A DNA stretch of 64,000 nt from assembly GCA_002897775.1 (NCBI GenBank), contig BDTR01000053.1, forward strand, positions 90,160 through 154,159, given 5' to 3'. Shown here piece after piece: positions 26,045 through 42,421 of the stretch. The position numbers and the translations under genes were made by a program. Below the pieces are notes generated by a model that saw nothing but the letters and a program-made list of their open reading frames with translations, made no database searches and was not told where the DNA came from. Numbering within the stretch: the stretch's first letter is position 1; each line of letters begins with the position of its first letter. The stretch comes from a bacterium BMS3Bbin08 (GTDB lineage: Bacteria > Nitrospirota > Thermodesulfovibrionia > UBA6902 > BMS3Bbin08).

Positions 26045-26060
26045 AATGTCCTCCTTTAGC

Positions 26061-26106
26061 CCGTTAGAGAGAAAGTTCCGCCATTTTCATCCGAACATTC
26101 TAACGG
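26061..26106. repeat. Degenerate CCGTTAGA...TCTAACGG palindromic element
   Basis: 8-bp terminal inverted repeats matching the element family. Confidence 0.6.
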
Positions 26107-26111
26107 TGTTA

Positions 26112-26855
26112 TTACGGCATAAACGGGCTTCCTTCCCGCCTTTCAGGTTCCGCGGGCTCTTCCGGCAGAAAACCTACCGGTTCTCCTCCCGGGAAAGTCT
26201 GTATTTCACCAACCACATAACCTGAAACTTCAATCTCGTCCCCTTCAGCCAGCTGTGTGACTTTTCCATCCAGAGACACTACTTCTACAGTCCCGCCCAT
26301 GGATTCAATATGGACCATTCTCGTTCCGGGATCCGCGCTTATCCATGCCGTTGCACCCTCAGGAATAAAAACCCTTATCCCCACTGTTACGGTCCCAATC
26401 AGGCCCTTTATACTCCTGACCTCTGCTATCCCTGTTATACGGTCCAGCTTGACCCTGGCACGCTGAGCAGTTCCGACCGTTATTGAGGTATTGCCAGCGG
26501 TGATCCCTATTTCACCAGCTTCTACGCTGAATTCCGACGTCCCTGACCTGTTATCCACAATAACGGTCACGCTGACCCCGGCTTCCACAATAGCCGTTGA
26601 ATTACCCGCGGCGACCCGGATGAAACCTTCAGCAGGCGCAATATCCATGCTCCCGCCTAAAACCTCTATAATGGCGCCGGATGGAATTTCAGGAAATTCC
26701 TCATCTTTCCCAATATTCAATACCGCTCCGTCCGGCTTTGTGATCCTGACCGCCCCTGTCCGGTTCGTGATGATTCTCTCCGCGTACGCGGCTTCAAGAA
26801 ACACCGTCATAATAAGAAATATAAAAAACGCCCCTGTAAATGCTCTTGTTCTCAT
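26112..26855 (-). CDS. Exported beta-rich protein with FecR-like repeats (paralog of 38459..39229)
   Basis: Signal peptide ending AYA; roughly 37-aa beta repeats; shares ITKPDG and TGIAEVRSIKG with the paralog; acidic Pro-rich tail. Confidence 0.65.
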   Translation of the reverse strand: MRTRAFTGAFFIFLIMTVFLEAAYAERIITNRTGAVRITKPDGAVLNIGKDEEFPEIPSGAIIEVLGGSMDIAPAEGFIRVAAGNSTAIVEAGVSVTVIVDNRSGTSEFSVEAGEIGITAGNTSITVGTAQRARVKLDRITGIAEVRSIKGLIGTVTVGIRVFIPEGATAWISADPGTRMVHIESMGGTVEVVSLDGKVTQLAEGDEIEVSGYVVGEIQTFPGGEPVGFLPEEPAEPERREGSPFMP

Positions 26856-26884
26856 GTCTTTGTCCCCCCGATTTTGTTTGTGGT

Positions 26885-27460
26885 TTATGGTTTACTGTTT
26901 ACCAGTTGCGGTCTGATTTTCTCTGAATACGTTACTGCCCGTTCGGTTTCATCCTCAATGCTTTCCAGGTCAAACCATGTTTTTACCCTGAGATAAACAT
27001 CTTTCAGATCAAAAGGTTTTCTGATAACATCAATGGCGCCTGTTAAATATGGATCATTCTCCTTCTCCTGAAATTCATAACCGGTCATAATAATTATTCC
27101 CGTGTTTGGAAACAGTTTTAGCGCGAGTTCTTTCCGGCGTTTAAGCATTAATTTTTTGCAGGTCTCAATACCGTCCAGACCGGGCATTTTAATATCCAGA
27201 AATATCAGGTCCAGCACATGAGTCGCGGCAAAGGAGATCGCGCTTTTCCCATCCCGTACTGCCGCTGTTGTAAATCCTCTTTTCTCCAGAAAAGAACACA
27301 GGACATCTCTGACCGCCTCATCATCATCCACAATTAAAATATGTTTTGATCCTGACCTGTCTTTCTGATTCAGTTTTTGAATGTTCTGATGAAGGGTCAT
27401 AAGGCCTTCACAGAGTGTCTCGATATCAAGCCCTTCGTTACCTGTCAAAAGATTCTCCAT
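26885..27460 (-). CDS. Receiver-domain protein with N-terminal extension and conserved W..YSEK tail
   Basis: VDDD, FLDIKMPG, MTG, KPF; tail WFDLESIEDETERAVTYSEKI. Confidence 0.88.
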   Translation of the reverse strand: MENLLTGNEGLDIETLCEGLMTLHQNIQKLNQKDRSGSKHILIVDDDEAVRDVLCSFLEKRGFTTAAVRDGKSAISFAATHVLDLIFLDIKMPGLDGIETCKKLMLKRRKELALKLFPNTGIIIMTGYEFQEKENDPYLTGAIDVIRKPFDLKDVYLRVKTWFDLESIEDETERAVTYSEKIRPQLVNSKP

Positions 27461-27598
27461 TTGGTATGAGATCCTGAATTTACCTTTTTAAACTTCCCGA
27501 AATGAGTCTGCGAAAATGATGGCGCTCAATATAATAAAAAACAATACTCCAAGTAAATTCAAAGTGACTATATGAGATGCGATAATATCTTATATGAT

Positions 27599-27627
27599 AA
27601 TATATCCTAATTTTATATCGCTGTCAA
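27599..27627 (-). promoter_or_regulatory. Sigma70-type promoter heading the REC-FecR-like-EPS operon
   Basis: TTGACA-N17-TATATT on the minus strand in an AT-rich intergenic region. Confidence 0.7.
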
Positions 27628-27860
27628 GTGCAATTTTATAATATTTTATAAAACTATACTAGTTATTCCCGGCGAACATTTGGAAAAGCCATGTGTTTGT
27701 TATGTTTTGCCGGCCAGACCGCGACCAGAGCCAAAAAGTAGGTAAATTTTCTTTTTAAAATTAAGAGGTTAATCGAAGGAAACCGTATATTGAGGCCTTG
27801 ATCCGGCGAAAGACCACCTGTAGCCGTGACTATGGCCGGTACATTATATATAGGGCGCGG

Positions 27861-28442
27861 TCAGGCCGGCTTCTTAAATTTGAACCTGGACAAATTATTT
27901 TTAAAACTTTTACTCAGGTACTCAAGCTCTTTCATGTCCTTCTCATGATAAAAAGCTGAATCCGACACATGGCTTATCTCTTTTTGTATGCCGTGTAAGG
28001 AAGTGACCATATGATGCAGTTTTCTTCTTGCCGCCTCGAGTTTTTCATTAAGACTGTTATGTCTTTCTTCCGGCACAGGGACCATCAGGTCTCCTTTGCC
28101 GATCCTTTCCATGGCTGTACTAAAAGTCATAAACCTGAGCGAGAGCTGTCTGAAAATAACGCCGGTAAGTACGGCAGCAGCCGGGACCAGCAAAAGTACG
28201 AAAATAAAAGTGGTCTTAAAAAAAACAGGGAATATAACATCCCTGGGGTCCGCGGGCATGAAGTGGGTCATAAAAAGGTGGGCTTTAACTGCCTTTACCC
28301 CGAAGTACCAGTAGCTCACAACAACTCCTGTGCCCACAATAAGTCCGAGAACAAGAAAAGCGAGGGCAAAGTTTCTCTGAAACCTTTTTTTTACTATGTA
28401 TTGTTTTCTTCTGTCCGGTATTTGTTTTTTTTCTGTATCCAT
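27861..28442 (-). CDS. Small 2-TM HAMP-domain membrane protein (truncated MCP-like)
   Basis: RRKQYIVKKRFQ N-terminus, two TM helices, MERIGKGDL HAMP; start moved to MDTEKK. Confidence 0.7.
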   Translation of the reverse strand: MDTEKKQIPDRRKQYIVKKRFQRNFALAFLVLGLIVGTGVVVSYWYFGVKAVKAHLFMTHFMPADPRDVIFPVFFKTTFIFVLLLVPAAAVLTGVIFRQLSLRFMTFSTAMERIGKGDLMVPVPEERHNSLNEKLEAARRKLHHMVTSLHGIQKEISHVSDSAFYHEKDMKELEYLSKSFKNNLSRFKFKKPA

Positions 28443-28464
28443 TATTTTTCCCCGGCTATTGGGT

Positions 28465-29244
28465 CTATTTCCTGTGGCAGGCGAGGCAAAGCGCGCTGCC
28501 CTCATTGCTGATAGCCAGCTGATAAGGTTCCTTCGAATAGGTGTTATGGCAGCTGCCGCAGCCGACCTTCCCGTTAAAAAGCCTTATGTTCTTTGCCAGC
28601 TTCGAAGGATGTGTATATCCCCCTTTTGCGTAAGCCTCCATAAAATCGACTCCGATCGGATGCTTGCCGCCATGCTCATTAATATATGCGCCCCTTCCCA
28701 GCCCGACACTGATATCATCGGCTATAGAACTGTCATGACAGCTCATGCACTGCATGGACAGGTTATCTATTGATATGCTTTCATCAATGATCACATACCT
28801 GCCGGAGGAGTGCGCGGTCTCCCCGGCGTCAGCGTGCAGATTTTCTATGTTTTCTCCGTGGCATAAGAAGCAGAATATCCTGCCTGATTCTTTCCAGTTC
28901 AATAAATACGGCCCTTCTCCGTGAATGCCGTGACATGTCGCGCAGGTAAGTCTGCCGGCGCTGTCCAGAGGAAAACCTTTCGGCATTTCCATGGCCGGCC
29001 TCATGCCGGTGGGATGGGACAGACCAAGGTCGCTGTGACATTCCTTGCATAGAGAATCAATATCTTTCAGGAAAATATCCTCAAATACATTTTTATCCTC
29101 ATCTACCAGGTGGCACATATTACACCTGTCCCCGAAATTATGGACCTCCAGCTCAGCAAGTGAAAAAAAAACCGACCCCGGAATAAGGAAGGCTATAATG
29201 AATATGCTAAATCTTAAATTTCCTGATCTCTTTACCCACGTCAT
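28465..29244 (-). CDS. Multiheme cytochrome c (7 CxxCH, doubled-CXXCH type)
   Basis: CNMCH, CKECH, CATCH, CFLCH, CMSCH, CGSCH, CLACH; N-terminal signal/TM. Confidence 0.9.
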   Translation of the reverse strand: MTWVKRSGNLRFSIFIIAFLIPGSVFFSLAELEVHNFGDRCNMCHLVDEDKNVFEDIFLKDIDSLCKECHSDLGLSHPTGMRPAMEMPKGFPLDSAGRLTCATCHGIHGEGPYLLNWKESGRIFCFLCHGENIENLHADAGETAHSSGRYVIIDESISIDNLSMQCMSCHDSSIADDISVGLGRGAYINEHGGKHPIGVDFMEAYAKGGYTHPSKLAKNIRLFNGKVGCGSCHNTYSKEPYQLAISNEGSALCLACHRK

Positions 29245-29740
29245 CTACTTTTCCCCTGAAGTCTTCAATGGACCTGTCGCTCCCATCCAGTCTGTTCCTT
29301 GCCTGTTCCATACCGTCATACGCCCTGTCAATGAGTTCGAACCTCCGGTTAAATCCTTTAAGGGCGTTGTTGAAGGTCAGTTCAACATCCTTCAGGGGAT
29401 CATAGCTCCTGAACCTCAACTTCTGTGAGAGGTCTCCTTTTGCGAGATCTACCAGGATATTTTCGAGCTTGTAGATCGGGCCCGCTATCTTATGGGAAGA
29501 GAGAATGGAAATGAATATTACGACCGCCGTAATATAAATGACCTCGACTATGCCGGCAAGTATGAAAATATTGATAAGAACATTTTTCGTTTTCGTCAGC
29601 GCGGAAATAGATTCGAAGTAATACTGGACATTCACACGGGGCAGCATAAAATAAACAACCGTCAGGGCTATTACAAAACCAACAGTGATCGTTCCTGTCA
29701 GTTTAAAAAGGAATCTCGATGTAAAGCTCTTTTCTATCAT
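29207..29740 (-). CDS. Small 2-TM HAMP-domain membrane protein
   Basis: Two TM helices, SHKIAGP...LAKGDL...LRFRSYD HAMP. Confidence 0.75.
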   Translation of the reverse strand: MIEKSFTSRFLFKLTGTITVGFVIALTVVYFMLPRVNVQYYFESISALTKTKNVLINIFILAGIVEVIYITAVVIFISILSSHKIAGPIYKLENILVDLAKGDLSQKLRFRSYDPLKDVELTFNNALKGFNRRFELIDRAYDGMEQARNRLDGSDRSIEDFRGKVDDVGKEIRKFKI

Positions 29741-29808
29741 TTACGCGCGGGAATATGAATGCACTGATAAGGGTCCTGAGACCTGCAGGATTATTGGCGG
29801 CGTCCTTT

Positions 29809-29842
29809 ACCCCGTTAGAAAGACAATCTCTTCTAACGGGGT
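29809..29842. repeat. Palindromic element ACCCCGTTAGAA-N10-TTCTAACGGGGT
   Basis: Perfect 12-bp inverted repeat just after the HD-GYP stop codon. Confidence 0.85.
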
Positions 29843-29855
29843 TTAATACTGGGAG

Positions 29856-30908
29856 TTAATCCTGGTGCGTATTGAATATTTCCTCAAATATCGGGGCGAT
29901 CTCAACAAACGAATCTAAAACATCAGGATCAAAATGATGAGGCATTGTCCTGCCGTCTCCTCTGGTTATAATGTCATAGACATCCTGATGACTGAGCGCC
30001 TTCTTATACGGCCTTTTACTCATTAACGCGTCATATTGATCGCATATCAGGACCATCCTGCCCTCGATAGGGATGTCACTGCCTTTTAACCCGGCCGGAT
30101 ACCCTGACCCGTCCCATCTCTCATGATGGTTCAGCGCGATAATAGCGCCCATTTGTATGACAGGGTGAGATGAACCCGACAGCATTTTCTCTCCAACAGC
30201 GCTATGGGTCTTCATAACAGTGAACTCCCCGGCAGTGAGAGGTCCGGGTTTTAACAGTACGGAATCCGGTATCCCTATCTTTCCTATATCATGGAGCGGG
30301 CTCGCGTATGTTATCGCGTCAATAAAATCTATCGGCTTGTTCATGTATTCAGCTATCTTGTTCGCATAAAGTCCTATCCTCGATATATGGGCGCCTGTGT
30401 CAGTGTCCCTGAATTCAGCTACTGTTACCAGCCGCTTTATAACCTCCCTGCTGAGTTGGACTATCTCCTGGGTCTTTTTCCTGACGCTTGTTTCAAGTAT
30501 GAGCTTGTAATTCTTCTCCATCTGTATAAGTCTGTTATGTTTGACAGCCTTGTTGATCGTATGCAGGAGATGCTCGGGCTTATAGGGCTTGGGTATATAA
30601 TCGAATGCCCCGCTTTTAATTGCCCCCATAGCCAGGTCCAGGTCTGAATAAGCTGTTATCAGGATCACCGGCACATCCGGATCAAGGGCGTGTATCTTTC
30701 CAAGCAGGTCGATACCGGACATTCCGGGCATCTTGATATCGGTCAATACAATATCAATGGTGTTTCCCTGGAACCTGTTGATTGCCTCTTTCGCGTTCTT
30801 ACAGGTCACCGTGGAATAATCATATTCATCCAGCAGGGCAGACACGGATTCACGCACGAACGGGTCGTCATCAACAACAAGCACTGTGTGTTTTTTTGCC
30901 TGTTTCAA
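29856..30908 (-). CDS. RpfG-family response regulator, REC plus HD-GYP cyclic dinucleotide phosphodiesterase
   Basis: REC (LTDIKMPG); TGAH, LHDIGKIG, HHERWDGSGYP, DQYDAL..RPYK. Confidence 0.93.
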   Translation of the reverse strand: MKQAKKHTVLVVDDDPFVRESVSALLDEYDYSTVTCKNAKEAINRFQGNTIDIVLTDIKMPGMSGIDLLGKIHALDPDVPVILITAYSDLDLAMGAIKSGAFDYIPKPYKPEHLLHTINKAVKHNRLIQMEKNYKLILETSVRKKTQEIVQLSREVIKRLVTVAEFRDTDTGAHISRIGLYANKIAEYMNKPIDFIDAITYASPLHDIGKIGIPDSVLLKPGPLTAGEFTVMKTHSAVGEKMLSGSSHPVIQMGAIIALNHHERWDGSGYPAGLKGSDIPIEGRMVLICDQYDALMSKRPYKKALSHQDVYDIITRGDGRTMPHHFDPDVLDSFVEIAPIFEEIFNTHQD

Positions 30909-33199
30909 GATACAAGCACCTCCCTTATCTTTCTTAAAAGATCCTGGGGCGACACAGGTTTTTGCAGTAGTTTGATCCCCTCTTCATATATCCCCTTTTC
31001 ATGGAGATCATCCAGGGAATAGCCGCTTAAAAAAAGCGCCTTCGTATCAGGTCTGATCTTTTTTATCTCGGCAAATGCCTGTTTCCCGTTCTTCCCGGGC
31101 ATAACAACATCAAGAAGTACAAGCTGGACCCTGTCCCTGTTCCTGCTGAATTTCTCCAGGGCGTCCTTTCCGTCCACCGCCTCTATTACCCCATAGCCGA
31201 ATTCCTCAAGCACGGTTTTTATGCTTTTTCTGACATTCGCCTGGTCTTCCGCCACAAGGATAGTCTCAGTTCCGCCGATCGGTTCGCCAACAGACGCAAC
31301 CGCTCCTTCTTCAACCGCCTGCTCGACCAGAGGCAGATAAATATCAATTGTCGTGCCTTTCCCATGTTCGCTGGAGACGTCGATAAACCCGTTATGCTGC
31401 CTGATTATTTCATTCGCGATCGAAAGTCCAAGACCTATTCCATTCCCGATCTCCCTGGCGCCAAGGAAAAGCTCAAATATCTTTTCCCTTGTTTCTTCAT
31501 CCATGCCCGTGCCTGTATCTTTAACAGAGACAAGCGCGTACTTGCCGGGTTTTCCAACACAATGGGGCCTGGAAAGGTCATTACAAATTTTTACAAGCGA
31601 TGTCTCTATAGTTAAAAGGCCGCCGCCCGGCATCGCGTCCCTGGCGTTTGTTACAAGATTGATCATTACCTGTTCAAGGCGTCCCTTGTCCGCCGTTACG
31701 AACAGGTCTTTATCCGTAAACTTCAATTTCAGTTCGATCTCTTTGCCCACAAGCATTAAGATAAGTTTTTCCGTTTTTCTGATGATCTCGTTCAGGTTTT
31801 CCTGCTTTGGAGTGAATATTTGATTTTTCCCGAATGAAAAGAGGCTTTGCGTAAGACCGGCCGCCTGGTCTGTCAAAGCGAGTATCTGGTTGACGTGCCA
31901 GGCTATTGCATCGTCTTTCCCTCTCTTCATCTTTAACAGCGTTCCATATCCGGTCAGGGCGGCCAGGATATTGTTAAAATCATGCGCGATCGCCCTTGTG
32001 ATCTGATCCAGGGCCTTCATTTTATGTAAATCGATCAATCGCGATTCAAGGTTCTTGCGTTCGGTAATGTCCTGAATTGTTCCTATTGAGCGTATCCTTT
32101 TTCCGGTCTCATCCTTAATATCCTCACACTTTTCATGAACATACCGTATCTCTCCGTCAGGCCTTACTATTCTGTGGACTATGTCATAGGCGGTATTGTT
32201 TATTACTGAATTTTTATACGATCTATCGACGAATTCCCTGTCCTCAGGGTGAACCATATTTAAAAATGCCTCATAAGTGCCTTTGAATTGCCCGGATTTC
32301 AGGCCGAATATCTCATATATCTCGTCCGACCAGGTAAGTCCATTGTTAATAAGATCGAATTGCCAATTGCCCAGTTGAGCGACTCGCTGGGCCTCCTTAA
32401 GGCCTCTTTCGCTTTTTCTGAGGGCCTCCTCAGCCATCCTGCGTTTTGTGATGTCCTTGATATAGTGAACAGTTCCTTCCAGTCCGCCTTTTTCATCAAT
32501 CACAGGTGAGACCGTTATCGTCAAATGCCGCTTAAGTTTCGGGTTATATGTTTCTTTTGTAACGGTCTTGCCGGATCTTAACGCGTCTATATGCGGGCAA
32601 TCAGGGTCTGGATGATCGAGACCATGTAATAGCTCGTAACAGTGTTTTCCAACCAGATCATCGGGTTTCATACCCAGCAGGTCAGACAATGCCTTGTTCA
32701 CCTTGACAAACCTGAAATCTTTGTCATTAACTGAAACAAAGTCTGTTATTGAATCAAAGGTGTTTTTCCATTGTTTTGTTGCTGCAGTCAGGTCATTTAC
32801 AAGGCGGTTGTGCGCCCTTCGGACCTGTGCGTCGCGCAGTTCACGCTCGATCGCGGGAACAAGACGCGAAAGATTGCTTTTCATGATATAGTCATGCGCG
32901 CCTGCCTTCATGATCTCCACCGCGTTCTCCTCGCTTATCTTGCCTGTCACAATTATGAACGGGATATCTATCCCCTTTTCGTTATGCAGTATCAGCGCTT
33001 CGAATCCGCTGAAACGCGGCATAACATAGTCAGCGATCACAATATCCCATTCCTGCCTGTCCAGAGCGGCGTTCATTGCGTCCGGAGACGATACCCTTTC
33101 AAAAACAGGCTCGTATCCTCCCTGACGCAGTTTTCGCACCAGTAACAGGGCGTCGTTTTCCGAATCCTCGACTATCAATACACGGAGCGTTTTATTCAC
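30905..33199 (-). CDS. Hybrid histidine kinase REC-PAS-PAS-HisKA-HATPase-REC
   Basis: AHDFNN H box, NLVTNARDAM N box, DTGTGM, two receivers; F box degenerate (IFELFLGARE). Confidence 0.92.
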   Translation of the reverse strand: MNKTLRVLIVEDSENDALLLVRKLRQGGYEPVFERVSSPDAMNAALDRQEWDIVIADYVMPRFSGFEALILHNEKGIDIPFIIVTGKISEENAVEIMKAGAHDYIMKSNLSRLVPAIERELRDAQVRRAHNRLVNDLTAATKQWKNTFDSITDFVSVNDKDFRFVKVNKALSDLLGMKPDDLVGKHCYELLHGLDHPDPDCPHIDALRSGKTVTKETYNPKLKRHLTITVSPVIDEKGGLEGTVHYIKDITKRRMAEEALRKSERGLKEAQRVAQLGNWQFDLINNGLTWSDEIYEIFGLKSGQFKGTYEAFLNMVHPEDREFVDRSYKNSVINNTAYDIVHRIVRPDGEIRYVHEKCEDIKDETGKRIRSIGTIQDITERKNLESRLIDLHKMKALDQITRAIAHDFNNILAALTGYGTLLKMKRGKDDAIAWHVNQILALTDQAAGLTQSLFSFGKNQIFTPKQENLNEIIRKTEKLILMLVGKEIELKLKFTDKDLFVTADKGRLEQVMINLVTNARDAMPGGGLLTIETSLVKICNDLSRPHCVGKPGKYALVSVKDTGTGMDEETREKIFELFLGAREIGNGIGLGLSIANEIIRQHNGFIDVSSEHGKGTTIDIYLPLVEQAVEEGAVASVGEPIGGTETILVAEDQANVRKSIKTVLEEFGYGVIEAVDGKDALEKFSRNRDRVQLVLLDVVMPGKNGKQAFAEIKKIRPDTKALFLSGYSLDDLHEKGIYEEGIKLLQKPVSPQDLLRKIREVLVS

Positions 33200-33648
33200 A
33201 ATGATCCCTTTTCTATTGGCGGAGGCTCGTTTAAAAGAAGCCAGTATAGCCCGAGCTGTCTTACCGCTTCTGTGAACTGTTCAAAGTCAACCGGTTTTTG
33301 AATATAGCTGTTCGCGCCCAGTTTGTAGCCATTTATCAGGTCTTTCTCCTCTTTGGATGATGTAAGAATAACTACAGGAAGCAGTTTTGTGCGATCATCC
33401 GAACGTATGCTCTTCAAAACTTCCATGCCGTCTATTTTGGGGAGCTTGAGGTCAAGCAGTACAACTGTTGGAAGTTTTTTAACATCGCGCCCGGAATACG
33501 CGCCGGTCGCGAATAGATAGTCCAGCGCCTCTACCCCGTCACGCGCGACAGTTACACTGTTCAGAATATTATTCTTTTTAAGCGCCCGCAGTGTAAGCTC
33601 CACATCATCCGGATTGTCTTCCACAAGCAGTATTGTCCTGTCATTCAC
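33196..33648 (-). CDS. Single-domain response regulator (Rcp1-like)
   Basis: VEDNPDD, LLDLKLPK, LTSS, GANSYIQKPVDF, YWL. Confidence 0.93.
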   Translation of the reverse strand: MNDRTILLVEDNPDDVELTLRALKKNNILNSVTVARDGVEALDYLFATGAYSGRDVKKLPTVVLLDLKLPKIDGMEVLKSIRSDDRTKLLPVVILTSSKEEKDLINGYKLGANSYIQKPVDFEQFTEAVRQLGLYWLLLNEPPPIEKGSL

Positions 33649-33666
33649 AGTATCCCCTCCTCCTGA

Positions 33667-35130
33667 TCAGATCGAAAAATAGAACGCCGCGCCTCTTTCT
33701 ATCGCTCCCTCTGCCCAAATATCGCCGCCGTGCCGCTGGATAATGCGCTTAACATTGGCAAGGCCGACACCTGTGCCTGAGAACTCGGCCAGTTCGTGCA
33801 GGCGCTGGAACGGCTGAAAGAGCTTGTTGACATAGGCCATGTCAAAACCCGCGCCGTCATCACGGACAAAAAACACCTGTTTGCCGTTTTCTCTCTTGGC
33901 GCCGAACTCTATTTTTGCGCTTGAATGTTTTTCCGTGAATTTCCAGGCATTGCCAAGGAGGTTTTCCATTGCCATCTTTAACAGCCTGGCGTCGCCGGTA
34001 GCGGTCAGTCCTTCCTGTATAATGAACTCAACCCTGTGTTCAGACCGGGAGTTCCCGAGGTTCGAAGATATTTCACGCGCCATAGCACTAAGATCCACCT
34101 CCTCATAATGCATCTCAGCTCGCACAACTCTCGATAATATCAACATGTCATCAATAAGCTGTCCCATACGCTGACTTGCCCTGCACACGCGATTAAGATA
34201 ATCTTTGCCTTTCTCATCAAGTCTGTCCAGATAGTCTTCCAGGAGCGCCCTGCTGAAGCCGTCAATACTCCTGAGCGGCGCGCGCAGGTCATGTGATACT
34301 GAATATGAAAATGCCTCAAGTTCCCTGTTTGCGGCCTTCAGCGCGTTTCCCATCTGCCTGCGTTTAATGTTCTCCTTGACCAGTTCATCGCGCGAAACAG
34401 AGACCCGTTTCAACCTTTCCGTCATCTGGTCAAAAGACCTTGAGAGTTGGCCGATCTCATCTTTTGTATCCATGTTGATTCTGTAAGCAAGATTGCCGCT
34501 CCCTACAACTTCTGTTCCTTCCCGAAGTTTCCTGAGCGGTTCGGAAATGGTTCTATTTATGAGAAATGAAATTGATGTGATAACCACTGCCAAAACGCTT
34601 ATAAGAAACCCTGTAAGCATGTTAGACTTTTGCCGGACATTCTCTCTTTCTCTGTGAGTTAATTCATTTAATTTGAAACTATCAGACACCGCCTCTCTTG
34701 AGCTCAACATCATCTGGCTTATTAATCTCTCTTGCAGTTCAATTGTGGTTTTATTTGACAGTCGATCTTGTCCGTTTCTGTAGCCCTCAGTCAGTTGACT
34801 GAAGTTATATTTGATGCCTTTAAGATTATTATTAACCCTTTCCAGAACGGCCAGTTCAGCCGGTTCTTTGAATTCCCCTGATAACAGGGAATTCTGTAAC
34901 GAGTCATATCTCATTTTCCATTGTTCTTCCGAGCGTTTTTCATGATGCAGCAGATAATCATAGGTTAAAATTTCCAGTTCGGTGATCCCCTTGACCAATA
35001 CAGCGGTCTTTGTTTCTTTCCTGCTTACTTTTTCCATCTGTGAGTTGGCCCCAATAAAAACCACACCCGTTATGATGACCGCGGCCACTGAAGCGATCGT
35101 GTTTATTTTAAGTCTGGTTTTGATACTCAC
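33667..35130 (-). CDS. Membrane HAMP histidine kinase (Cph1/BphP-like transmitter)
   Basis: Two TM helices, HAMP, FSYSVSHDLRAPLR, NLLGNAWKF, DDGAGF, FQRLH, GTGVGLA. Confidence 0.93.
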   Translation of the reverse strand: MSIKTRLKINTIASVAAVIITGVVFIGANSQMEKVSRKETKTAVLVKGITELEILTYDYLLHHEKRSEEQWKMRYDSLQNSLLSGEFKEPAELAVLERVNNNLKGIKYNFSQLTEGYRNGQDRLSNKTTIELQERLISQMMLSSREAVSDSFKLNELTHRERENVRQKSNMLTGFLISVLAVVITSISFLINRTISEPLRKLREGTEVVGSGNLAYRINMDTKDEIGQLSRSFDQMTERLKRVSVSRDELVKENIKRRQMGNALKAANRELEAFSYSVSHDLRAPLRSIDGFSRALLEDYLDRLDEKGKDYLNRVCRASQRMGQLIDDMLILSRVVRAEMHYEEVDLSAMAREISSNLGNSRSEHRVEFIIQEGLTATGDARLLKMAMENLLGNAWKFTEKHSSAKIEFGAKRENGKQVFFVRDDGAGFDMAYVNKLFQPFQRLHELAEFSGTGVGLANVKRIIQRHGGDIWAEGAIERGAAFYFSI

Positions 35131-35141
35131 TTGATTTATCC

Positions 35142-36185
35142 CTAATGGATTATGCTAACTGCTTCGGGTCTGACCTCTTCCAGTGCGTCTATATAGATAA
35201 AATCAAGATAATTCGGGACCTCTGTTTTATCTGTCAGGTTGTTTTTTATCGCCCATCGCGCCTCATCCTCCATTGTTATTAACAGGGATTGAGATAGAGA
35301 AAGTCTGAATTCATACATATCCCATAGGGTATTTATCTTCCCGTGGTCCGCATTCAGGTGCTGAGCTATGATGTCCACGGATTCGTCGCGGTTTTCTTTT
35401 ATGAATTTTTCCGCTTTAGACAAAGCCCTGAGGACCCTTTTTATCAATTCCGGATTATTCTCTATGAAATCGTTCTTTGAAACCAGATTAAATGTCGCCA
35501 TATACCCAACATTAGCGGGCAGAAAGACCGCATTGTCGCCTAATATATTTTGAGCTTTTGATATGTTCGGCTCCCAGGCAAAGATCGAGTCCACGTCACC
35601 ATTCACGATCGCTCTCACCATTTCCTTTGGTTTAAGATCGTACACCTCAATTGCGGAAGGATCCATGCCATTAAAGACAAAAAATACGTCCATGAAAAAA
35701 TGTGCTGTTGTTCCCCTGGTAGTTGCGATCTTTTTGCCGGTCAAGTCCTGAGGAGTCTCGATGTTTCTATCTTTTCTGGCAAGGGCCTTTGCGTGCCGGG
35801 CAGAATCCACAATAGTCGCAAAGGCAGAGAAATCATCTCGCACAAAACTATTAAAAACAATTGGGGTATCAGCCACTGTCCCGATATTGACCTCTTTTTT
35901 TAATACAGCGGCCAGGGCATGTTTCCCGGTCGGATAACCCATTATCTCCATATCTATGCCTTGCTCAAGAAAATAACCTTTGGCCTTCGCAATATGGACC
36001 ATAGAAGGGAGCAGGCTCGTAGCGCTCACTCCCAATGTGACTTTATCGATCTGCTTCCCGGGCTTTTGACCGCCGAACCGCTCGCAGCCGCCTATTAAGA
36101 GAACTGCGACAGCGATCATGCCTGTTATCCAAAGGAAAAACTTTCTTCTAACGCTGTTTTCAGTACTAAAGGTTTTCTCCGTCAT
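35142..36185 (-). CDS. SsuA/THI5/NrtA-family solute-binding protein, probable lipoprotein
   Basis: Start moved to MTEKTF (ATGA overlap); LIGGC lipobox-like; DLTGKKIAT, GDVD...AWEP; no permease or ATPase nearby. Confidence 0.8.
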   Translation of the reverse strand: MTEKTFSTENSVRRKFFLWITGMIAVAVLLIGGCERFGGQKPGKQIDKVTLGVSATSLLPSMVHIAKAKGYFLEQGIDMEIMGYPTGKHALAAVLKKEVNIGTVADTPIVFNSFVRDDFSAFATIVDSARHAKALARKDRNIETPQDLTGKKIATTRGTTAHFFMDVFFVFNGMDPSAIEVYDLKPKEMVRAIVNGDVDSIFAWEPNISKAQNILGDNAVFLPANVGYMATFNLVSKNDFIENNPELIKRVLRALSKAEKFIKENRDESVDIIAQHLNADHGKINTLWDMYEFRLSLSQSLLITMEDEARWAIKNNLTDKTEVPNYLDFIYIDALEEVRPEAVSIIH

Positions 36186-36640
36186 GCTATCCCGCCTCCC
36201 AGATACCAGTTCACTTTTTCCGTGTACAGCAGTGACCGCGAAAGCTCGTCCTCTATATTCCTGACCTGAAACCATATATTGATCCGCTGGTTAACGTCCT
36301 CCAGGTCAAAAGGCTTTTTAATGACATCGATCGCGCCTGAACTGAATGACTTTTCCATATTCTCCGGAGAACCGTAACCTGTTATCATCATTATTCCTGT
36401 CTTTGACGAGGGCTTCAGCGCCTGGCTTAATTTCTGGCAGGTCTTAATACCGTTCATTCCCGGCATCTTTATATCCAGAAGGACCACATCAGGTGTTTTC
36501 TTCTCGACATAAGAAATAGCGCTCTGTCCGTCAGGCAGATCCACTGTCTTATATCCCTTTTTCTCCAGATAGGTGCACAGGATATCCCTGATTACATCCT
36601 CATCGTCCACGACCATAACAGTCTTTGGTTTCGTTGCCAT
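36182..36640 (-). CDS. Single-domain receiver, W..YTEK-tail family
   Basis: VDDE, LLDIKMPG, ITG, KPF; tail WFQVRNIEDELSRSLLYTEKV. Confidence 0.9.
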   Translation of the reverse strand: MATKPKTVMVVDDEDVIRDILCTYLEKKGYKTVDLPDGQSAISYVEKKTPDVVLLDIKMPGMNGIKTCQKLSQALKPSSKTGIMMITGYGSPENMEKSFSSGAIDVIKKPFDLEDVNQRINIWFQVRNIEDELSRSLLYTEKVNWYLGGGIA

Positions 36641-36660
36641 ATGGACCCCCTTTAAGTTTT

Positions 36661-36768
36661 ACCCCGTTAGAAATTACTGTGGCTCGAAGCGAGTCGGAGT
36701 TTAGTCGGCCTGCCTGCCGGCAGGCCTTCCCGTTAGAAGCTTGTACGCCTACGGTCTTCTAACGGGGT
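36661..36768. repeat. Composite palindromic element
   Basis: ACCCCGTTAGAA...TTCTAACGGGGT with a nested CCCGTTAGAAG and a GGCCTGCCTGCCGGCAGGCC palindrome. Confidence 0.8.
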
Positions 36769-36843
36769 TTACTTATTGGCCCGGGAATCAGGTCTGTTCC
36801 CGCGCCGGAAACATAAGTGGAACGATCGGATGGACCGATACCT

Positions 36844-37299
36844 TCACGCCGGACATCCCTTCGTAAGCCATCTTACTTTTGCCGAATATACAAGTGACCG
36901 CACCATCCTGCTTTCGATATTTCTTACTTCGAACCAGGTATTGATCCGCCTGTGAACGTCCTCCAGCTCAAAAGGCTTTCTCACAAAATCTATAGCTCCT
37001 GAACTGTACGCGTTTTCCAAATTCCCCTTTGAATCATGGCCGGTTATCATGATTATCCCTGTTCCCGGAGAGGACGGCAGTACCTGTTTTAGTCTTGAGC
37101 ACGTCTCAATACCGTTCATTCCCGGCATCTTTATATCAAGAAGAACTACATCCGGCTTTTTCTTCTCGGCATAGGAAATAGCGCTCTGTCCGTTTGACCG
37201 CGCCACTGTTTTATATCCCTTAAGCTCCAGAAAAAAACATAGAACATCTCTGACCGCAGCTTCATCGTCCACTACCATGATCAGCTTTGGTCCCGGCAT
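36844..37299 (-). CDS. Single-domain receiver, same family
   Basis: REC motifs; tail WFEVRNIESRMVRSLVYSAKV. Confidence 0.9.
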   Translation of the reverse strand: MPGPKLIMVVDDEAAVRDVLCFFLELKGYKTVARSNGQSAISYAEKKKPDVVLLDIKMPGMNGIETCSRLKQVLPSSPGTGIIMITGHDSKGNLENAYSSGAIDFVRKPFELEDVHRRINTWFEVRNIESRMVRSLVYSAKVRWLTKGCPA

Positions 37300-37351
37300 A
37301 TTGTCTCACCCCTCATTAATTTTTTCATTCCAGGTCCATACTGCCTTCAGC

Positions 37352-37810
37352 TTATGAGCGCTCTCCTTTTCTCATCACTTTTTCCGAGTATTTCGTTAGA
37401 CGCGACAGTTCATCTTCAATATTTCTTACTTCGTACCAGATCCTGATCCGCTGGTTGACGTCCTCCAGGTCAAAGGGCTTTTTAACAAAATCTATAGCTC
37501 CTGAACTATACGCGTTTTCCAAATTCCCCTTTGAATCATGGCCGGTTATCATGATTATCCCTGTTCCCGGAGAGGACGGCAGTACCTGTTTTAGTCTTGA
37601 GCACGTCTCAATACCGTTCATTCCCGGCATCTTTATATCAAGAAGAACTACATCCGGCTTTTTCTTCTCGGCATAGGAAATAGCGCTCTGTCCGTTCGAC
37701 TTTGCCACTGTTTTATATCCTTTAAGCTCCAGAAAAGAACATAAAACATCCCTGACAACCGCTTCGTCATCTACTATCATGATCATTTTTGTTTTAGACA
37801 CTGTATCCAT
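37352..37810 (-). CDS. Single-domain receiver, same family
   Basis: REC motifs; tail WYEVRNIEDELSRLTKYSEKV; about 210 bp nearly identical to the neighbouring gene. Confidence 0.9.
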   Translation of the reverse strand: MDTVSKTKMIMIVDDEAVVRDVLCSFLELKGYKTVAKSNGQSAISYAEKKKPDVVLLDIKMPGMNGIETCSRLKQVLPSSPGTGIIMITGHDSKGNLENAYSSGAIDFVKKPFDLEDVNQRIRIWYEVRNIEDELSRLTKYSEKVMRKGERS

Positions 37811-37862
37811 CCTCCTTTCTGCTCATATATCTCTATTGCCATGGATTATGTGACCTTAAGCC

Positions 37863-38312
37863 TCATGTCCTGAATATTTCCATTACTCTTTCCCGGTATA
37901 CCAGCCGGCGCGCAAACTCGTCATAGAAAACGCTTCTCAGTTCAAACCATATATTTACCCGCTTATTGATAGCTTCCAGGTCAAATGGTTTTTTAATAAC
38001 ATCAATGGCGCCGCAAACAAATGACTTTTCCACATTCTCCGGAGAGCCATAGCCGGTAATAATGATTATCCCGGTTTCCGGAGACGACGGCAGGGTCTTT
38101 TTGAACATGTTGCAGGTTTTGATCCCGTCCATTCCGGGCATTTTTATATCCAGAAAAACCAGATCCGGCATATTCTCCTTTGCACAGGAAATAGCGCTCA
38201 GTCCATCAGACCGCGACACGGTTCTATAACCATGAAGCTCCAGAAAAGAACATAAAACCTCTCTGACAACCGCTTCATCGTCTACGACCATTATAAGTTT
38301 TTGCTCCGGCAT
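37863..38312 (-). CDS. Single-domain receiver, same family
   Basis: Start moved to MPEQKL; tail WFELRSVFYDEFARRLVYRERV. Confidence 0.87.
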   Translation of the reverse strand: MPEQKLIMVVDDEAVVREVLCSFLELHGYRTVSRSDGLSAISCAKENMPDLVFLDIKMPGMDGIKTCNMFKKTLPSSPETGIIIITGYGSPENVEKSFVCGAIDVIKKPFDLEAINKRVNIWFELRSVFYDEFARRLVYRERVMEIFRT

Positions 38313-38458
38313 ACGCAGCAGACCTGATCCGGGTCTTTTGTTCACAAAATCACACCTCCCCCCGCGTCCACCGTCACTGTCCGTCTCCCTTCGTGTATCT
38401 TGCAACATTCTTATATTCAAGCTCTTTTCACCGCGAGATCTCTGTTGCCGCCGCATCT

Positions 38459-39229
38459 TTAAGGGAACAACGGCCAGAACCTGTAATACCTTTTTCTCCT
38501 GAACTCATCCGGTCCCTCATCTTCATCGGGCGCGTCAACCTCAGGGGTCATATTGGTAAACGTCTGGATCCCGGCAGGAACGCATCCCGTCATATGGAAT
38601 GTCTCTCCTTCAGACAATTTTTTTCTTACACTGCCGTCGACAGACGAAACTTCAATAGACCCGTCTGCTGACTTAACATTTACCTCACCTGTCGCATCAT
38701 CAATGCTTATCTCCGCTGCCATGTGCTCCGGAATTAAAGCCCTGACACAGACCGTATCAGTCCTGATCGCGCCCTTTATACTCCTGACCTCTGCTATCCC
38801 TGTCATATTGTCTGATCTGACCTGAACACTCTGAGCTTTCCCCACCGTTATTGTCGTATTTCCAGCGATCACCTCTAGCCCGCCCGCTGACACACTGTAT
38901 TCCGCCATCCCTGTTTCAGTATCCACCATAACCGTAATTCTGTCGCCGGCCTCAACAGCTGTTACCATATCGCGGGCAATAACCTGAACAACCCCCTCTG
39001 CCGGCGCAACTTCCATACTTCCAGCCAGGATCTCCACTGTTGATCCTGAAGAAATTTCCGGCAAAGGCCTGTCTTTTTTAATATCGACCGTCAGGACCAT
39101 TCCATCAGGTTTTGTTATTTTGACGGTACAGGTGTGGTCATTGATAACAGCCACTGCGTTCGCTGTCTGAAAAAACGCGGCAAAGGCAAGATATAAGGTC
39201 AGCCACGCCTTTGATATTCCCGGTCTCAT
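38459..39229 (-). CDS. Exported beta-rich FecR-like protein (paralog of 26112..26855)
   Basis: Signal peptide ending ANA; ITKPDG, APAEG, AGNTTITVG, TGIAEVRSIKG shared with the paralog. Confidence 0.65.
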   Translation of the reverse strand: MRPGISKAWLTLYLAFAAFFQTANAVAVINDHTCTVKITKPDGMVLTVDIKKDRPLPEISSGSTVEILAGSMEVAPAEGVVQVIARDMVTAVEAGDRITVMVDTETGMAEYSVSAGGLEVIAGNTTITVGKAQSVQVRSDNMTGIAEVRSIKGAIRTDTVCVRALIPEHMAAEISIDDATGEVNVKSADGSIEVSSVDGSVRKKLSEGETFHMTGCVPAGIQTFTNMTPEVDAPDEDEGPDEFRRKRYYRFWPLFP

Positions 39230-39768
39230 TTTACCAGTCCCAATTTCAAATGCCGGTCCAGTTTTTCCGAGTACTTCCTCGCGCGTATTGCCTTACTCTT
39301 GATATCTCTTACCTCAAACCATATATTTATCCGCCCGCTGATATCCTTCAGATCAAAAGGCTTACTTATGACGTCTATGGCCCCGGAAGCGTGCAAACTT
39401 TCAAGGTCCATTCCTGGATCATAGCCGGTTATCATGATTATCCCCGTGCCCGGAGAGGACCGCAGTACGCGCTTCAGCCTGCGACAGGTCTTAATGCCGT
39501 CCAGGCCGGGCATTTTCATATCCAGGAAGATCACATCAGGCTTCTGTTTCCCGGCCATAGAGATAGCGCTATGGCCATCTTTCAGGGCCACTGTCTTATA
39601 TCCCTTTCTTTCCAGGAACATACATAAAACATCCCTGACAACTCTTTCATCATCCACGACCATAACGGTCTGTGACGTAGATCGCTCAGGCAGTTCTGTA
39701 AGTTTTTTATTTGTCATACCGCAGGCAAAGCTCCGCCCTCTGGAGTAGGAAAACAGAGAAATGTTCAC
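39226..39768 (-). CDS. Receiver, same family (start may be 39717)
   Basis: REC motifs; tail WFEVRDIKSKAIRARKYSEKL; ATAA/ATG-type tight coupling to the FecR-like gene. Confidence 0.87.
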   Translation of the reverse strand: MNISLFSYSRGRSFACGMTNKKLTELPERSTSQTVMVVDDERVVRDVLCMFLERKGYKTVALKDGHSAISMAGKQKPDVIFLDMKMPGLDGIKTCRRLKRVLRSSPGTGIIMITGYDPGMDLESLHASGAIDVISKPFDLKDISGRINIWFEVRDIKSKAIRARKYSEKLDRHLKLGLVK

Positions 39769-39889
39769 TCAACCGGCACTGACAACAACAGCCGGACCTT
39801 TAAGCTCCCGACCGGTCAAAGTCTGATCTCAATAATATCCAAATAAGTTCCTGTCAGCCCGGAACAAATAAATTTTTTAATGACTACCG

Positions 39890-40294
39890 CTATATTTCTA
39901 CGGATTCTTTTTTTTCGTTCAGTACGCTTTTTATGCAGCCGGCCAGTTTCCCGGTATCAACAGGTTTGGCTATAAAACTGCGCCCCCCTATCTTTTTGAT
40001 CGCTTCAATACCGACCTCTTCCCTGGTAACCACGGCTGTCAGAAAAATAACAGGTATGTGTTTTGTCCTCTGATCATGGAACAGGATCTCAGCGATCTCC
40101 GGACCGGACATCTGGGGCATATTAATGTCCAGCAGGATCAGGTCAGGGTTCTTCTCCCTGGCCAGGTTGATCCCTTCCCTGCCCTGACTGGCGGTCATGA
40201 CCTCAAACTCTCCTGTCTGCTCCAGGTTCCTTCCCATAAAAAAACAGAAATCCTTCTCATCATCGATTAGGAGTATTCTTTTCCTGTCTGACAT
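39890..40294 (-). CDS. Single-domain response regulator
   Basis: IDDE, LLDINMP, FLTA, FIAKPV; lacks the W..YSEK tail. Confidence 0.9.
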   Translation of the reverse strand: MSDRKRILLIDDEKDFCFFMGRNLEQTGEFEVMTASQGREGINLAREKNPDLILLDINMPQMSGPEIAEILFHDQRTKHIPVIFLTAVVTREEVGIEAIKKIGGRSFIAKPVDTGKLAGCIKSVLNEKKESVEI

Positions 40295-41985
40295 GTCATT
40301 TTCTCCTTTGACTGCGCCGTTGCTTTGGCCGCCGGCAGTTTCATTATGAATGTTGTTCCTTTACCCGCTTCACTCTTAACGTCTATGATCCCCTTATGAC
40401 GGTCGAGTATGGTACGTACAATGCTCAGGCCCAGTCCCGTCCCTTTCCCGGGTTCTTTTGTGGTAAAAAACGGATCAAACACTTTTGATAATATGTCCCG
40501 CGGGATCCCGCTGCCTGTATCCTCTATCTCTATGGCTACGCGCTTATCCTGATCTTTGCCTGCCTGGTCCGGATATATCCTTAATGTAAGACGTCCCCCG
40601 GCAGACATTGCGTCCATCGCGTTCGAGCAGAGATTAAAAAATACCTGCCGCAGCATTGCCGGGTCCGCCATCACACCGATCAGTTCGCTGAAATATTCTC
40701 TGGTTATTGTCACGTTCTTCAGTTTTGCCTGATCTTTGATCATGGACAACACCTCATCCATCAGTTCACAGATATTTATCATGTCCAGGTCAAGCTTGGA
40801 CACCCTTGAGAATTTCAGAAAATCGATAATAATATTGTTTGCCCTGTTCACAGAATTTATTATCCTGTCCATGGATCCGCTGATCAGATCATCTTTATAG
40901 GTCATGTTGTTTCTAAGAAACTCGACCCCTCCCAGGATGATCGCAAGGGGGTTCCTGATCTCATGGGCTATATCAAATAACAGCCGGCCCACGGCCGCCA
41001 TTTTTTCGATCTGAATAAGCTGGTTCTGTGTCTCATTTAATTCCCTTATAGTATTCTTGAGGTCTGTTATCTTGTTCTGCAGCTGACTGTACAGCCTGTA
41101 ATTTTCCACAACAGCGCCGGCCTGGCCCGCGAGAAGAGACAGCAGGATCTGTTCTCTTTTGTTAAAACTTTCTCCGGAGACCTTGTCGGTTATGTTGATC
41201 ACGCCAAGAGCGTTCTTTTCCAGGTGCTTGATCATCAGACGAAGAGATATGAATGACTTGGTTTTATATTCCGACCTGCTTTTCCGCCTGACCCTCCTGT
41301 CCTGCTCGATATCAACGACCATCAGCGGCTTCCCGTTCTTTAAGACTTTGCCGCAGATACTTTGATCAAGTTTTATCCTGGTGTTTTTCACAACTTCGTC
41401 GCTCAATCCGCGCGCTACTTTTATGGTTAATTCCTCGGTCTTCTCGTCAAGAAGCATAATAGAGCCTCTCCGTGCCTTGACCAGTTTCAGGGCAGAGTCC
41501 AGGATCTGCTCCAGAATGGAATCAAAGTCCGGGGCAGTGGCAATTGCCTTGCTGACCTCCAGAAGCGTCATTAGTTCGCTCAGTTCAACATAATTGACGT
41601 TAACCTTCTGGTTATCCAGGCACCTGTCCACTGTGGCCAGCATCTCGCTCATATCAAAAGGCTTACACAAATAATCAGAAGCCCCTGTCTTTATCGCCTC
41701 TACAGCCGTGCTTATCGATGGATAGCCGGTAAGTACTATCGCCTCTGTGTAGGGATTCACTTTCTTTACCTCTTTTACGACGTCCACACCGCCAACTTTA
41801 GGCATTCTCAGATCTGTGATCAGAAGATTAAAAAAATTACTTTTTATCTTTTCGATCGCGATCTTCCCATCCTCAGCGGTCTCAACGTCATATTTTTTTG
41901 CCTCCAGGGTCTGCTTTAAAAGCTGCCGCACGGTTTGCTCATCATCAATGACCAGGATCTTTGGCTTATCCATTTGAGTTATCAC
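40267..41985 (-). CDS. Hybrid kinase REC-GAF-HisKA-HATPase
   Basis: REC, GAF (GSIMLLD...GVINITDK), AHEIRNP, NLCSNAMDAM, PFFTTK, GTGLGL. Confidence 0.92.
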   Translation of the reverse strand: MITQMDKPKILVIDDEQTVRQLLKQTLEAKKYDVETAEDGKIAIEKIKSNFFNLLITDLRMPKVGGVDVVKEVKKVNPYTEAIVLTGYPSISTAVEAIKTGASDYLCKPFDMSEMLATVDRCLDNQKVNVNYVELSELMTLLEVSKAIATAPDFDSILEQILDSALKLVKARRGSIMLLDEKTEELTIKVARGLSDEVVKNTRIKLDQSICGKVLKNGKPLMVVDIEQDRRVRRKSRSEYKTKSFISLRLMIKHLEKNALGVINITDKVSGESFNKREQILLSLLAGQAGAVVENYRLYSQLQNKITDLKNTIRELNETQNQLIQIEKMAAVGRLLFDIAHEIRNPLAIILGGVEFLRNNMTYKDDLISGSMDRIINSVNRANNIIIDFLKFSRVSKLDLDMINICELMDEVLSMIKDQAKLKNVTITREYFSELIGVMADPAMLRQVFFNLCSNAMDAMSAGGRLTLRIYPDQAGKDQDKRVAIEIEDTGSGIPRDILSKVFDPFFTTKEPGKGTGLGLSIVRTILDRHKGIIDVKSEAGKGTTFIMKLPAAKATAQSKEKMTCQTGKEYS

Positions 41986-42147
41986 GGCAGTTCAGACAAT
42001 AGGTTCCTCTGAGTTCTGACTTTGTGATCTGCTGTCAAGTTCTCCGTAATGGTTATGGCAAGCTTCAAGTAACAAAATGAAAAGGACAGATATTATAGCC
42101 AGGCGGTAAAATATCTCCCGACTAAATAAATGATATTATTTAATATA

Positions 42148-42176
42148 ATATTATCGGATATTTTAATGCTTGTCAA
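42148..42176 (-). promoter_or_regulatory. Sigma70-type promoter heading the 42-28 kb signalling operon
   Basis: TTGACA-N17-TAATAT on the minus strand in an AT-rich region. Confidence 0.65.
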
Positions 42177-42280
42177 GTAAATTATGCTATCAGATAATAT
42201 TATATATTATAAGATTTTATCGCTTTTTGGTGTGAAAATGTAGGAAAAAATACGGGCAGGAAACAAATAAACGCGTTTAA

Positions 42281-42421
42281 TTATTTGAGGGTCCCTTCTT
42301 TGTACCATGTGCCGGTGAACCACCACCAGTAAAGTTTGTTCAGCAGTTCAATGCTTTTGATGCGGTCGAAATCATCAAGCGCTCTTATCTTATAGTCTAT
42401 TATTTTTTTACGGTCTATCAT
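42281..42421 (-). CDS. 46-aa Trp-rich small protein
   Basis: Below the ORF-track cutoff. MIDRKKIIDYKIRALDDFDRIKSIELLNKLYWWWFTGTWYKEGTLK; GAGGGGTG RBS-like site upstream. Confidence 0.55.
   Translation of the reverse strand: MIDRKKIIDYKIRALDDFDRIKSIELLNKLYWWWFTGTWYKEGTLK

Follow-up and report, generated by a model that had tools for sequence, protein, structure and literature searches.

Six paralogous single-domain response regulators with a predicted extra C-terminal helix form a lineage-restricted family beside an exopolysaccharide export locus

Single-domain response regulators are abundant and few of them have a known target, and cross-talk between paralogous copies is an open practical question. 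Among the closest described cases, EpsW of Myxococcus xanthus is a single-domain regulator reported to activate the initiating sugar transferase EpsZ by direct binding (PMC12802240); MrrA (Caulobacter) and VemR (Xanthomonas) are described as receivers without output domain that link several kinases and targets. Short C-terminal receiver helices and multi-copy stand-alone receivers are both already known kinds. Here we describe six stand-alone receivers, called tail-receivers A to F, in a stretch of 64,000 nucleotides (the window) from the bacterium BMS3Bbin08 (Nitrospirota; Thermodesulfovibrionia; UBA6902; assembly GCA_002897775.1, contig BDTR01000053.1, positions 90,160 to 154,159 of the forward strand). 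We propose, at a probability of roughly 0.45, that the copies are phospho-dependent adaptors which would share kinases and diverge in their targets, fanning out to exopolysaccharide and biofilm outputs. A sequence-only reading of the window had earlier claimed six paralogous stand-alone receivers with intact D/T/K phosphorylation residues, IxTC and TGI motifs and a common C-terminus of about 25 residues absent from the other receivers of the window, and had supposed a lineage-specific family expanded as an array.

By sequence, the six open reading frames (ORFs; Table 1) are paralogous, canonical, predicted phosphorylatable single-domain response regulators. Response_reg (PF00072) is the only Pfam family above cut-off in all six (83.3-104 bits vs 30.2), and the ORFs, of 151-197 aa, contain no second Pfam domain. 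Their alignment has 44 invariant columns, including the DD pair, the phospho-acceptor D, the T and K, the G-I-x-T-C and T-G-I motifs and tail columns that include R, W, R and Y. Pocket residues D12, D13, D56, T87 and K109 (numbered as in receiver E, the 36182 protein) show no variation among the six; a 28-member family alignment keeps all of them without exception but for T87, conserved in at least 90%. The modelled (βα)5 fold matches solved receivers with Z 19-21 and root-mean-square deviation (rmsd) 1.1-1.5 Å over ~120 residues. A search of the window's genome (2.7 Mb, 67 contigs, 95% complete) returns the six at E ≤ 3e-41 with at least 51% identity, followed by the next match at E 7e-21 (38%); receiver F is the most divergent copy, at 43-47% identity to the other five. 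Coordinates, Pfam assignment and invariant columns thus agree with the six paralogues first listed. Two of the genes likely start later than their longest frame: receiver B, because other members begin 6-8 residues before the VVDD motif, and receiver A, because a database protein of 163 aa begins at the corresponding Met. The stop codon of receiver A overlaps the start of a secreted-protein gene (ATGA), and that of receiver E overlaps an ATG at which the binding-protein gene downstream may begin.

An AlphaFold2 (AF2) model of receiver E, computed from a 28-sequence family alignment (mean predicted local distance difference test, pLDDT, 92.6; predicted template-modelling score 0.88), shows a (βα)5 receiver with α5 at residues 113-126 (coded by 36263-36304), then a turn (127-131) and an additional helix, α6 (132-148, coded by 36197-36247). 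The motif reported earlier corresponds to residues 119-143, and the Pfam receiver model reaches residue 120; an additional C-terminal helix is therefore predicted as claimed, whereas about a third of the supposed tail (119-126) is the receiver's own α5. As modelled, the tail is the C-terminal part of α5 plus a five-residue turn and a ~17-residue α6, with no separate domain. Matches to solved structures cover the receiver core only (model residues 3-134 for PDB representatives, 4-132 in re-examined Foldseek matches); the top PDB representative aligns 121 residues with Z 20.2 and rmsd 1.3 Å, and Z reaches 21 overall.

The absence of the tail from other receivers was examined with a profile of residues 113-148 made from 19 relatives, window sequences excluded, and scored on 14,384 stop-to-stop ORFs of the genome. 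It matches exactly the six at E ≤ 1e-9, with the next ORF at E 0.29, and hence no other receiver of the window or genome has the tail. Nor does the tail resemble a known domain, in keeping with what had been supposed. The tails alone match no Pfam family in five of the six cases, the sixth giving two chance-level matches (E 0.016 and 0.04), and the tail profile run against solved sequences finds only homeobox 'RIQIWFQNR' strings at E ≥ 3. In an Atlas search with residues 105-152 no score exceeded 0.87 and none of the matches was to a named family that could be retained, the ANTAR match at 0.76 being discarded.

Position, by contrast, relates the tail to the linkers of larger regulators. When a profile of the whole family is run against solved sequences, its best matches are ordinary receivers (Bacillus subtilis PhoP at E 6.9e-31, Spo0F, PleD), and among the best 60 shown the NtrC1 receiver-plus-linker chain 1zy2 is the sole one aligned through profile position 143. 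The tail aligns column by column with α5 and the linker start of the genome's own NtrC-type and REC-GGDEF proteins, multi-domain database proteins align with the family profile through positions 143-149, the same linker position, and the best NCBIfam alignments (to AtoC/NtrC-family, PleD, NtrX and PEP-CTERM regulator models) extend to model positions 134-137. The tail-receivers themselves stop 20-30 residues beyond α5. Because α6 occupies the position of the linker helix in multi-domain regulators, its appearance is that of a retained linker stub, not of a new module, on a receiver that lacks an output domain. In a comparison with the S-helix, made without a family model for scoring, the linker position agrees, while the AF2 model has the turn at 127-131 and nothing follows the helix.

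Conservation within the protein, measured as mean column entropy over 25 close members, is strongest in the active-site loops (0.16-0.54 bits, the β5-α5 loop at 0.16) and the strands. Helix α1 follows at 0.94 bits, and the two highest values are those of α4 (1.95 bits) and α6 (2.11 bits). Helix α6 is the least conserved part of the protein, not the most. What is kept inside α6 are R135 and Y139, near-invariant in the 25 members, and more weakly positions 141-143, with a spacing that places them on one helix face. Pairwise Nei-Gojobori estimates on 11 genes (the six of the window and five from a related genome, G002) give mean ratios of nonsynonymous to synonymous differences (pN/pS) of 0.35 (core), 0.27 (α5) and 0.58 (turn plus α6); these ratios are rough, pS being ~0.7 and near saturation. 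Within that roughness the tail is, by its codons, under purifying selection, as had been expected of it, more weakly on α6 than on the core, with α6 the least constrained part.

These figures bear on whether the receivers are simply truncated NtrC- or GGDEF-type regulators, with α6 left over as an α5 cap that does no signalling and the array arisen by tandem duplication, an explanation we regard as distinctly unlikely. The equivalence of the tail to α5 plus linker, the best NCBIfam alignments to NtrC-family and PleD models (up to positions 134-137) and the variability of α6, the most variable element, all agree with such an origin, as does the nearest non-family paralogue, a 459-residue open frame that extends past α5 into linker and more and that we read, from its sequence, as an NtrC-type activator. 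Against this, proteins of 267-2000 residues include no close fused form (best E 5.7e-27, identities 27-43%), which also upholds the description of the family as stand-alone; R135 and Y139 are near-invariant in 25 members; pN is well under pS in α6; and in the AF2 model a turn splits α5 from α6, so that the two are not one continuous helix.

In another reading, α6 would form a short coiled coil or helix swap, through which phosphorylation would produce homo- or hetero-dimers, with mixed dimers giving combinatorial outputs. Linker helices at the α6 position dimerise in NtrC1-type regulators, and α6 is amphipathic with a single conserved stripe. The helix is only ~17 residues long with a turn before it, and most of its positions vary freely between copies, and we consider such a role very unlikely. 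A homodimer prediction scored 0.01 vs a mark of 0.42, a result that weighs neither for nor against binding.

Comparison between copies reveals a history in which cores and tails behave differently. The cores of receivers C and D are 93% identical, while their turn-plus-α6 segments are 46% identical, identity dropping toward the α6-coding 3' end. A 188-nt tract shared without difference (Table 1) is, at the nucleotide level, consistent with gene conversion. The tail of receiver D is 62% identical to that of a G002 copy (L012:2244-2702) vs 46% to that of receiver C; the tail of receiver E has its nearest relative in another G002 copy (72%), and the tail of receiver C is 54% identical to that of a third. 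Since tail types are common to both genomes, they are older than the divergence of the two genera, and they have outlived the conversion that homogenised the cores.

Such homogenised cores could also belong to a phosphate sink or buffer, in which largely redundant acceptors drain or buffer phosphoryl groups from the kinases nearby and govern pathway gain and timing while α6 only stabilises the fold. Multiple CheY-type sinks are known in chemotaxis. Here every copy has the conserved α1 and pocket, the cores are kept similar by gene conversion, the island holds many kinases and hybrid kinases, and copy number is high and varies between organisms (6, 5, 6). Pure redundancy does not predict, however, that tail types stay recognisable orthologues across genomes despite homogenisation of the core, and a fixed position ahead of a secreted protein in five of five loci suggests specific roles; on balance we think a sink unlikely.

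The family is, as far as sequence collections tell, lineage-restricted and narrow, with ~30 database proteins, which agrees with the lineage-specific origin originally supposed. It occurs in 2 of the 7 genomes of its taxonomic family, six copies in the window's genome and five in G002, and in none of 400 other genomes sampled across the phylum (a sample that did not contain G002), either with the whole protein at E ≤ 1e-30 or with the tail-only profile at E ≤ 1e-3. A collection of 5.8 billion proteins returned 91 at E ≤ 1e-15; 29 of the top 33 have the tail pattern, and the remaining proteins in that list are ordinary receivers or tandem-receiver proteins. A comparable R-x3-Y ending recurs in remoter proteins (35-50% identity), one of them a tandem-receiver protein. 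A metagenome scan with a tail-derived pattern found four loci on three contigs. Two broader searches are uninformative for the range of the tail: a profile search of 1.84 billion representatives gave 1,657,268 matches at E ≤ 0.001, almost every one of the 150 listed being a multi-receiver protein with summed domain scores, and only two family representatives standing in that list as single-stretch matches; and a contig scan on the generic DIKMPG pattern, in a collection that may omit the window's own genome, gave at least 80 loci at up to 47% identity with no family member among the matches listed. The DNA is present in ten DNA runs of marine metagenomes from three studies, and no RNA run was listed. 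In a phylogenetic tree the family is monophyletic with respect to three distant rows (support 96/94). The supposed expansion as an array extends to two further organisms: six copies in the window, five in G002 and six at locus L094 all lie in one and the same kind of signalling island, with gene order preserved.

From fold, residues, distribution, synteny and the pattern of conservation we infer phosphorylation, partners and biological output. Intact receivers, α6 at the linker position, a conserved α1, variable α4 and α6, retained tail types and fixed gene positions together point to adaptors that share kinases. The same local kinase or kinases would phosphorylate all copies, since they have a conserved kinase-facing α1 and conserved active-site loops, and each copy's diversified α4/α6 surface would bind a different target. 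One signal would in this way branch into several outputs, through which exopolysaccharide and biofilm functions would be controlled post-translationally; competition of the copies for phosphoryl groups would be a by-product. The fixed gene positions adjoin cyclic di-GMP (c-di-GMP) enzymes and an exopolysaccharide exporter, and EpsW would by analogy be a precedent for post-translational control of exopolysaccharide (PMC12802240).

This proposal must be tempered by several points that weigh against it. A profile of turn plus α6 (127-148, made without window sequences) ranks the six first and reaches E < 0.01 in only 3 of them, so that conservation in the tail is mostly that of α5, with two or three α6 positions added. 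The weak conservation of α6, read from the alignment, agrees equally well with a largely unconstrained leftover and with diversification of targets, and the near-saturated synonymous sites limit what the selection estimates can add. That α4 and α6 form one surface is an assumption, and conservation of α1 in recent paralogues may reflect shared ancestry and not a shared kinase. With ~30 members the family is small, and most of its tree lacks resolution (18 of 30 inner branches open). Finally, the single Hpt match in the genome, in a 665-residue frame on contig C39, lies outside the island.

The last point also concerns a Spo0F-like role as phosphorelay shuttles, which would pass phosphoryl groups from kinase through phosphotransferase to the receivers of HD-GYP, GGDEF or sugar-transferase proteins. 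The best matches among solved sequences include Spo0F (E ~3e-30), a similarity equal to that of any receiver, and the island contains several receiver-output proteins and hybrid kinases; with no Hpt or Spo0B-like gene in the island and the sole Hpt match of the genome on a separate contig, we give this role little credence.

Beyond the adaptor proposal, the conserved cysteines C22 and C68 were considered for an Fe-S or redox role, an idea then set aside: there are two only, on α1 and α3 in the model, and 'GIETC' is present in unrelated receivers too. In the standard receiver fold α1 and α3 lie on opposite faces of the sheet.

The array belongs to a signalling island read from the minus strand (Table 1). 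A REC-GAF kinase and a plain receiver, a pair that precedes the arrays in both other organisms as well, are followed by receiver A, a secreted all-β protein, receivers B, C, D and E and an NMT1-type protein, then by a HAMP kinase, a plain receiver, a hybrid kinase, a REC-HD-GYP-type protein, two small membrane proteins with a cytochrome, and receiver F. After receiver F come a second secreted all-β protein, an EpsL-like barrel, Wza-like and Wzc-like proteins and a long polysaccharide biosynthesis cluster. The islands of G002 and L094 have a REC-PAS-GAF-HD-type protein among the tail-receivers, and G002 additionally a REC-PAS-GGDEF protein.

Table 1. Features of the window discussed in the text, with positions counted from its first nucleotide.
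Feature	Position	Strand	Remarks
Tail-receiver A	39226..39768	-	ORF 180 aa; likely start ATG 39717, giving 163 aa
Tail-receiver B	37863..38456	-	ORF 197 aa; likely start ATG 38312, giving 149 aa
Tail-receiver C	37352..37810	-	152 aa; Pfam Response_reg 104 bits; query for family searches
Tail-receiver D	36844..37299	-	151 aa; core 93% identical to receiver C, tail of different type
Candidate gene-conversion tract in receiver D	37007..37194	-	188 nt identical to 37509-37696 of receiver C; residues 36-98
Tail-receiver E	36182..36640	-	152 aa; Pfam Response_reg 99.2 bits, residues 8-120
Tail-receiver F	26885..27460	-	191 aa; 40-residue N-terminal leader; first gene of exopolysaccharide export operon
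REC-GAF histidine kinase	40267-41985	-	Pfam; directly upstream of array with plain receiver
Plain receiver	39890-40294	-	Pfam; between REC-GAF kinase and array
Secreted all-β protein 2	38459..39229	-	256 aa, signal peptide; directly after receiver A; matched by family hidden Markov model
NMT1-type binding protein	35142-36275	-	Pfam; start uncertain
HAMP histidine kinase	33667-35130	-	Pfam
Plain receiver	33196-33648	-	Pfam
REC-PAS-kinase-REC hybrid	30905-33199	-	Pfam
REC-HD-GYP-type protein	29856-30908	-	Pfam; GYP motif seen in translation
Secreted all-β protein 1	26112..26855	-	247 aa; directly after receiver F
EpsL-like outer-membrane barrel	24845-26044	-	Pfam BBP2_2 108 bits
Wza-like exporter	23904-24710	-	NCBIfam TIGR03027 198.1 bits vs cut-off 180
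Wzc-like chain-length/tyrosine-kinase protein	21924-23759	-	NCBIfam TIGR01007 186 bits vs 108

The secreted proteins 1 and 2 share 46% identity, and further copies are found at L013:1323-2066, L094:13486-14229 and L096:657-1424. In all 5 distinct loci the secreted protein directly follows a tail-receiver, once with a stop/start overlap, and it has only 10 database relatives. Its AF2 model (protein 1, pLDDT 82.4) is all-β with 20 strands. Protein 1 has no Pfam match at E ≤ 0.01 and no NCBIfam match, and protein 2 has no Pfam match. Foldseek against the PDB gave nothing at E ≤ 0.001, the top rows being OspA-like sheets with template-modelling score (TM) 0.2, and an Atlas structure search gave a weak lead to FecR-like clusters (PF04773; TM 0.45-0.53). 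It is conceivable, though improbable in our estimation, that a tail-receiver and the secreted protein after it make up an undescribed two-gene module that couples cytoplasmic phosphorylation to EpsL/Wza/Wzc assembly or gating, the variable α6 serving as an address code for each target (exporter, HD-GYP/GGDEF enzyme or receiver-fused sugar transferase).

Signals for expression were sought by pattern. The best sigma-70-like site in 26000-42500 lies at 27627-27599 (minus strand; TTGACA, 17-nt spacer, TATATT; 11 of 12 positions), within an AT-rich gap of 400 nt and ~140 nt upstream from receiver F, and a second (42176-42148; 10 of 12 positions) lies ahead of the REC-GAF kinase; overall counts of sigma-70-type sites and terminators in these scans were not above those in shuffled sequence. 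The sigma-54 promoter consensus gave 17 matches vs 27.7 expected, none ahead of the genes, and Rfam found no match over the window. The sole long gap inside the array, 200 nt between receivers D and E (36641-36843), contains a GC-rich palindrome and a repeated 'TTCTAACGGG' string, with no Rfam match and no terminator call.

Several other features of the island and the polysaccharide locus were recorded. Two small membrane proteins (27861-28505 and 29207-29740, both minus strand) lack a Pfam match and have C-terminal parts that are HAMP-like by eye; between them lies a multihaem c-type cytochrome of 259 aa (28465-29244, minus strand). In G002 the HD-type regulator is followed by a relative of the 29207 protein (L012:13578-14000), and L094:458-1630 likewise encodes a multihaem cytochrome. 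About 6 kb past the low end of the window, the polysaccharide locus ends in a 957-residue fusion (L098:1135-4008, equivalent to G000:C53:81134-84007) of a Bac_transf sugar-phosphate transferase, CoA_binding_3, a Polysacc_synt_2 dehydratase and a C-terminal receiver; judged by its domains, the initiating sugar transferase appears to carry its own phosphorylation switch. A gene of UpxY/RfaH type in the polysaccharide cluster (19142-19693, minus strand; 109.7 bits vs cut-off 100) suggests that the biosynthesis genes downstream are subject to operon-specific antitermination. A single exosortase (EpsH family, 169.8 bits; G000:C36:9249-10034) is encoded in the genome, on another contig and so not beside this PEP-CTERM-like export locus.

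The array offers a compact natural test case for the cross-talk question: 5-6 copies with a near-identical kinase-facing surface and differing α4/α6 surfaces, in a gene order fixed in three organisms, with a readable output adjoining (exopolysaccharide export and c-di-GMP enzymes). If it is true that α6 selects targets, a leftover linker would have been reused as a docking element. General impact is limited, given that the organisms are uncultured marine metagenome bacteria and the family is very small.

Relative to known systems, the tail-receivers are closest in architecture to stand-alone receivers of the CheY, Spo0F and DivK kind, to which the best structural and sequence matches here belong and with which they share a single (βα)5 receiver, the DD-D-T-K pocket and the lack of an output domain. 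Unlike these, they add α6 past α5, outside most solved matches, and have no chemotaxis or sporulation context; no chemotaxis family turned up in scans that covered part of the window's ORFs. CheY orthology was rejected, NCBIfam CheY_Halo scoring 68.8 bits vs a cut-off of 200 and the CheY and DivK-type models falling far below theirs. To NtrC1/DctD-type and REC-GGDEF/HD-GYP regulators they are alike in that α6 lies at the linker position; they differ in having no AAA+, GGDEF or HD domain and no close fused relative, in a conserved R-x3-Y that is not seen in those linkers, and in the turn that the model places between α5 and α6. Identity as an NtrC-type sigma-54 activator, or as a PleD- or RpfG-type regulator, was rejected, Pfam finding in the six neither the AAA+ sigma-54 interaction domain nor the domains that define the latter two.

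EpsW orthology was rejected as well: the top score of the receiver C protein for any NCBIfam model is 93.4 bits, and the EpsW model (NF041866, cut-off 200) stands outside the 25 best of its 97 families. The likeness to EpsW is that of a stand-alone receiver with an exopolysaccharide locus acting through post-translational protein contact (PMC12802240), receiver F here heading the export operon; the difference is that the sugar transferase of the present locus has its own fused receiver. MrrA and VemR are single genes in contrast to arrays of 5-6 copies, and their sequence kinship is limited to the receiver fold. What is particular to the tail-receivers is the combination of a narrow lineage, a conserved array, retained tail types and a constant pairing with an uncharacterised secreted protein.

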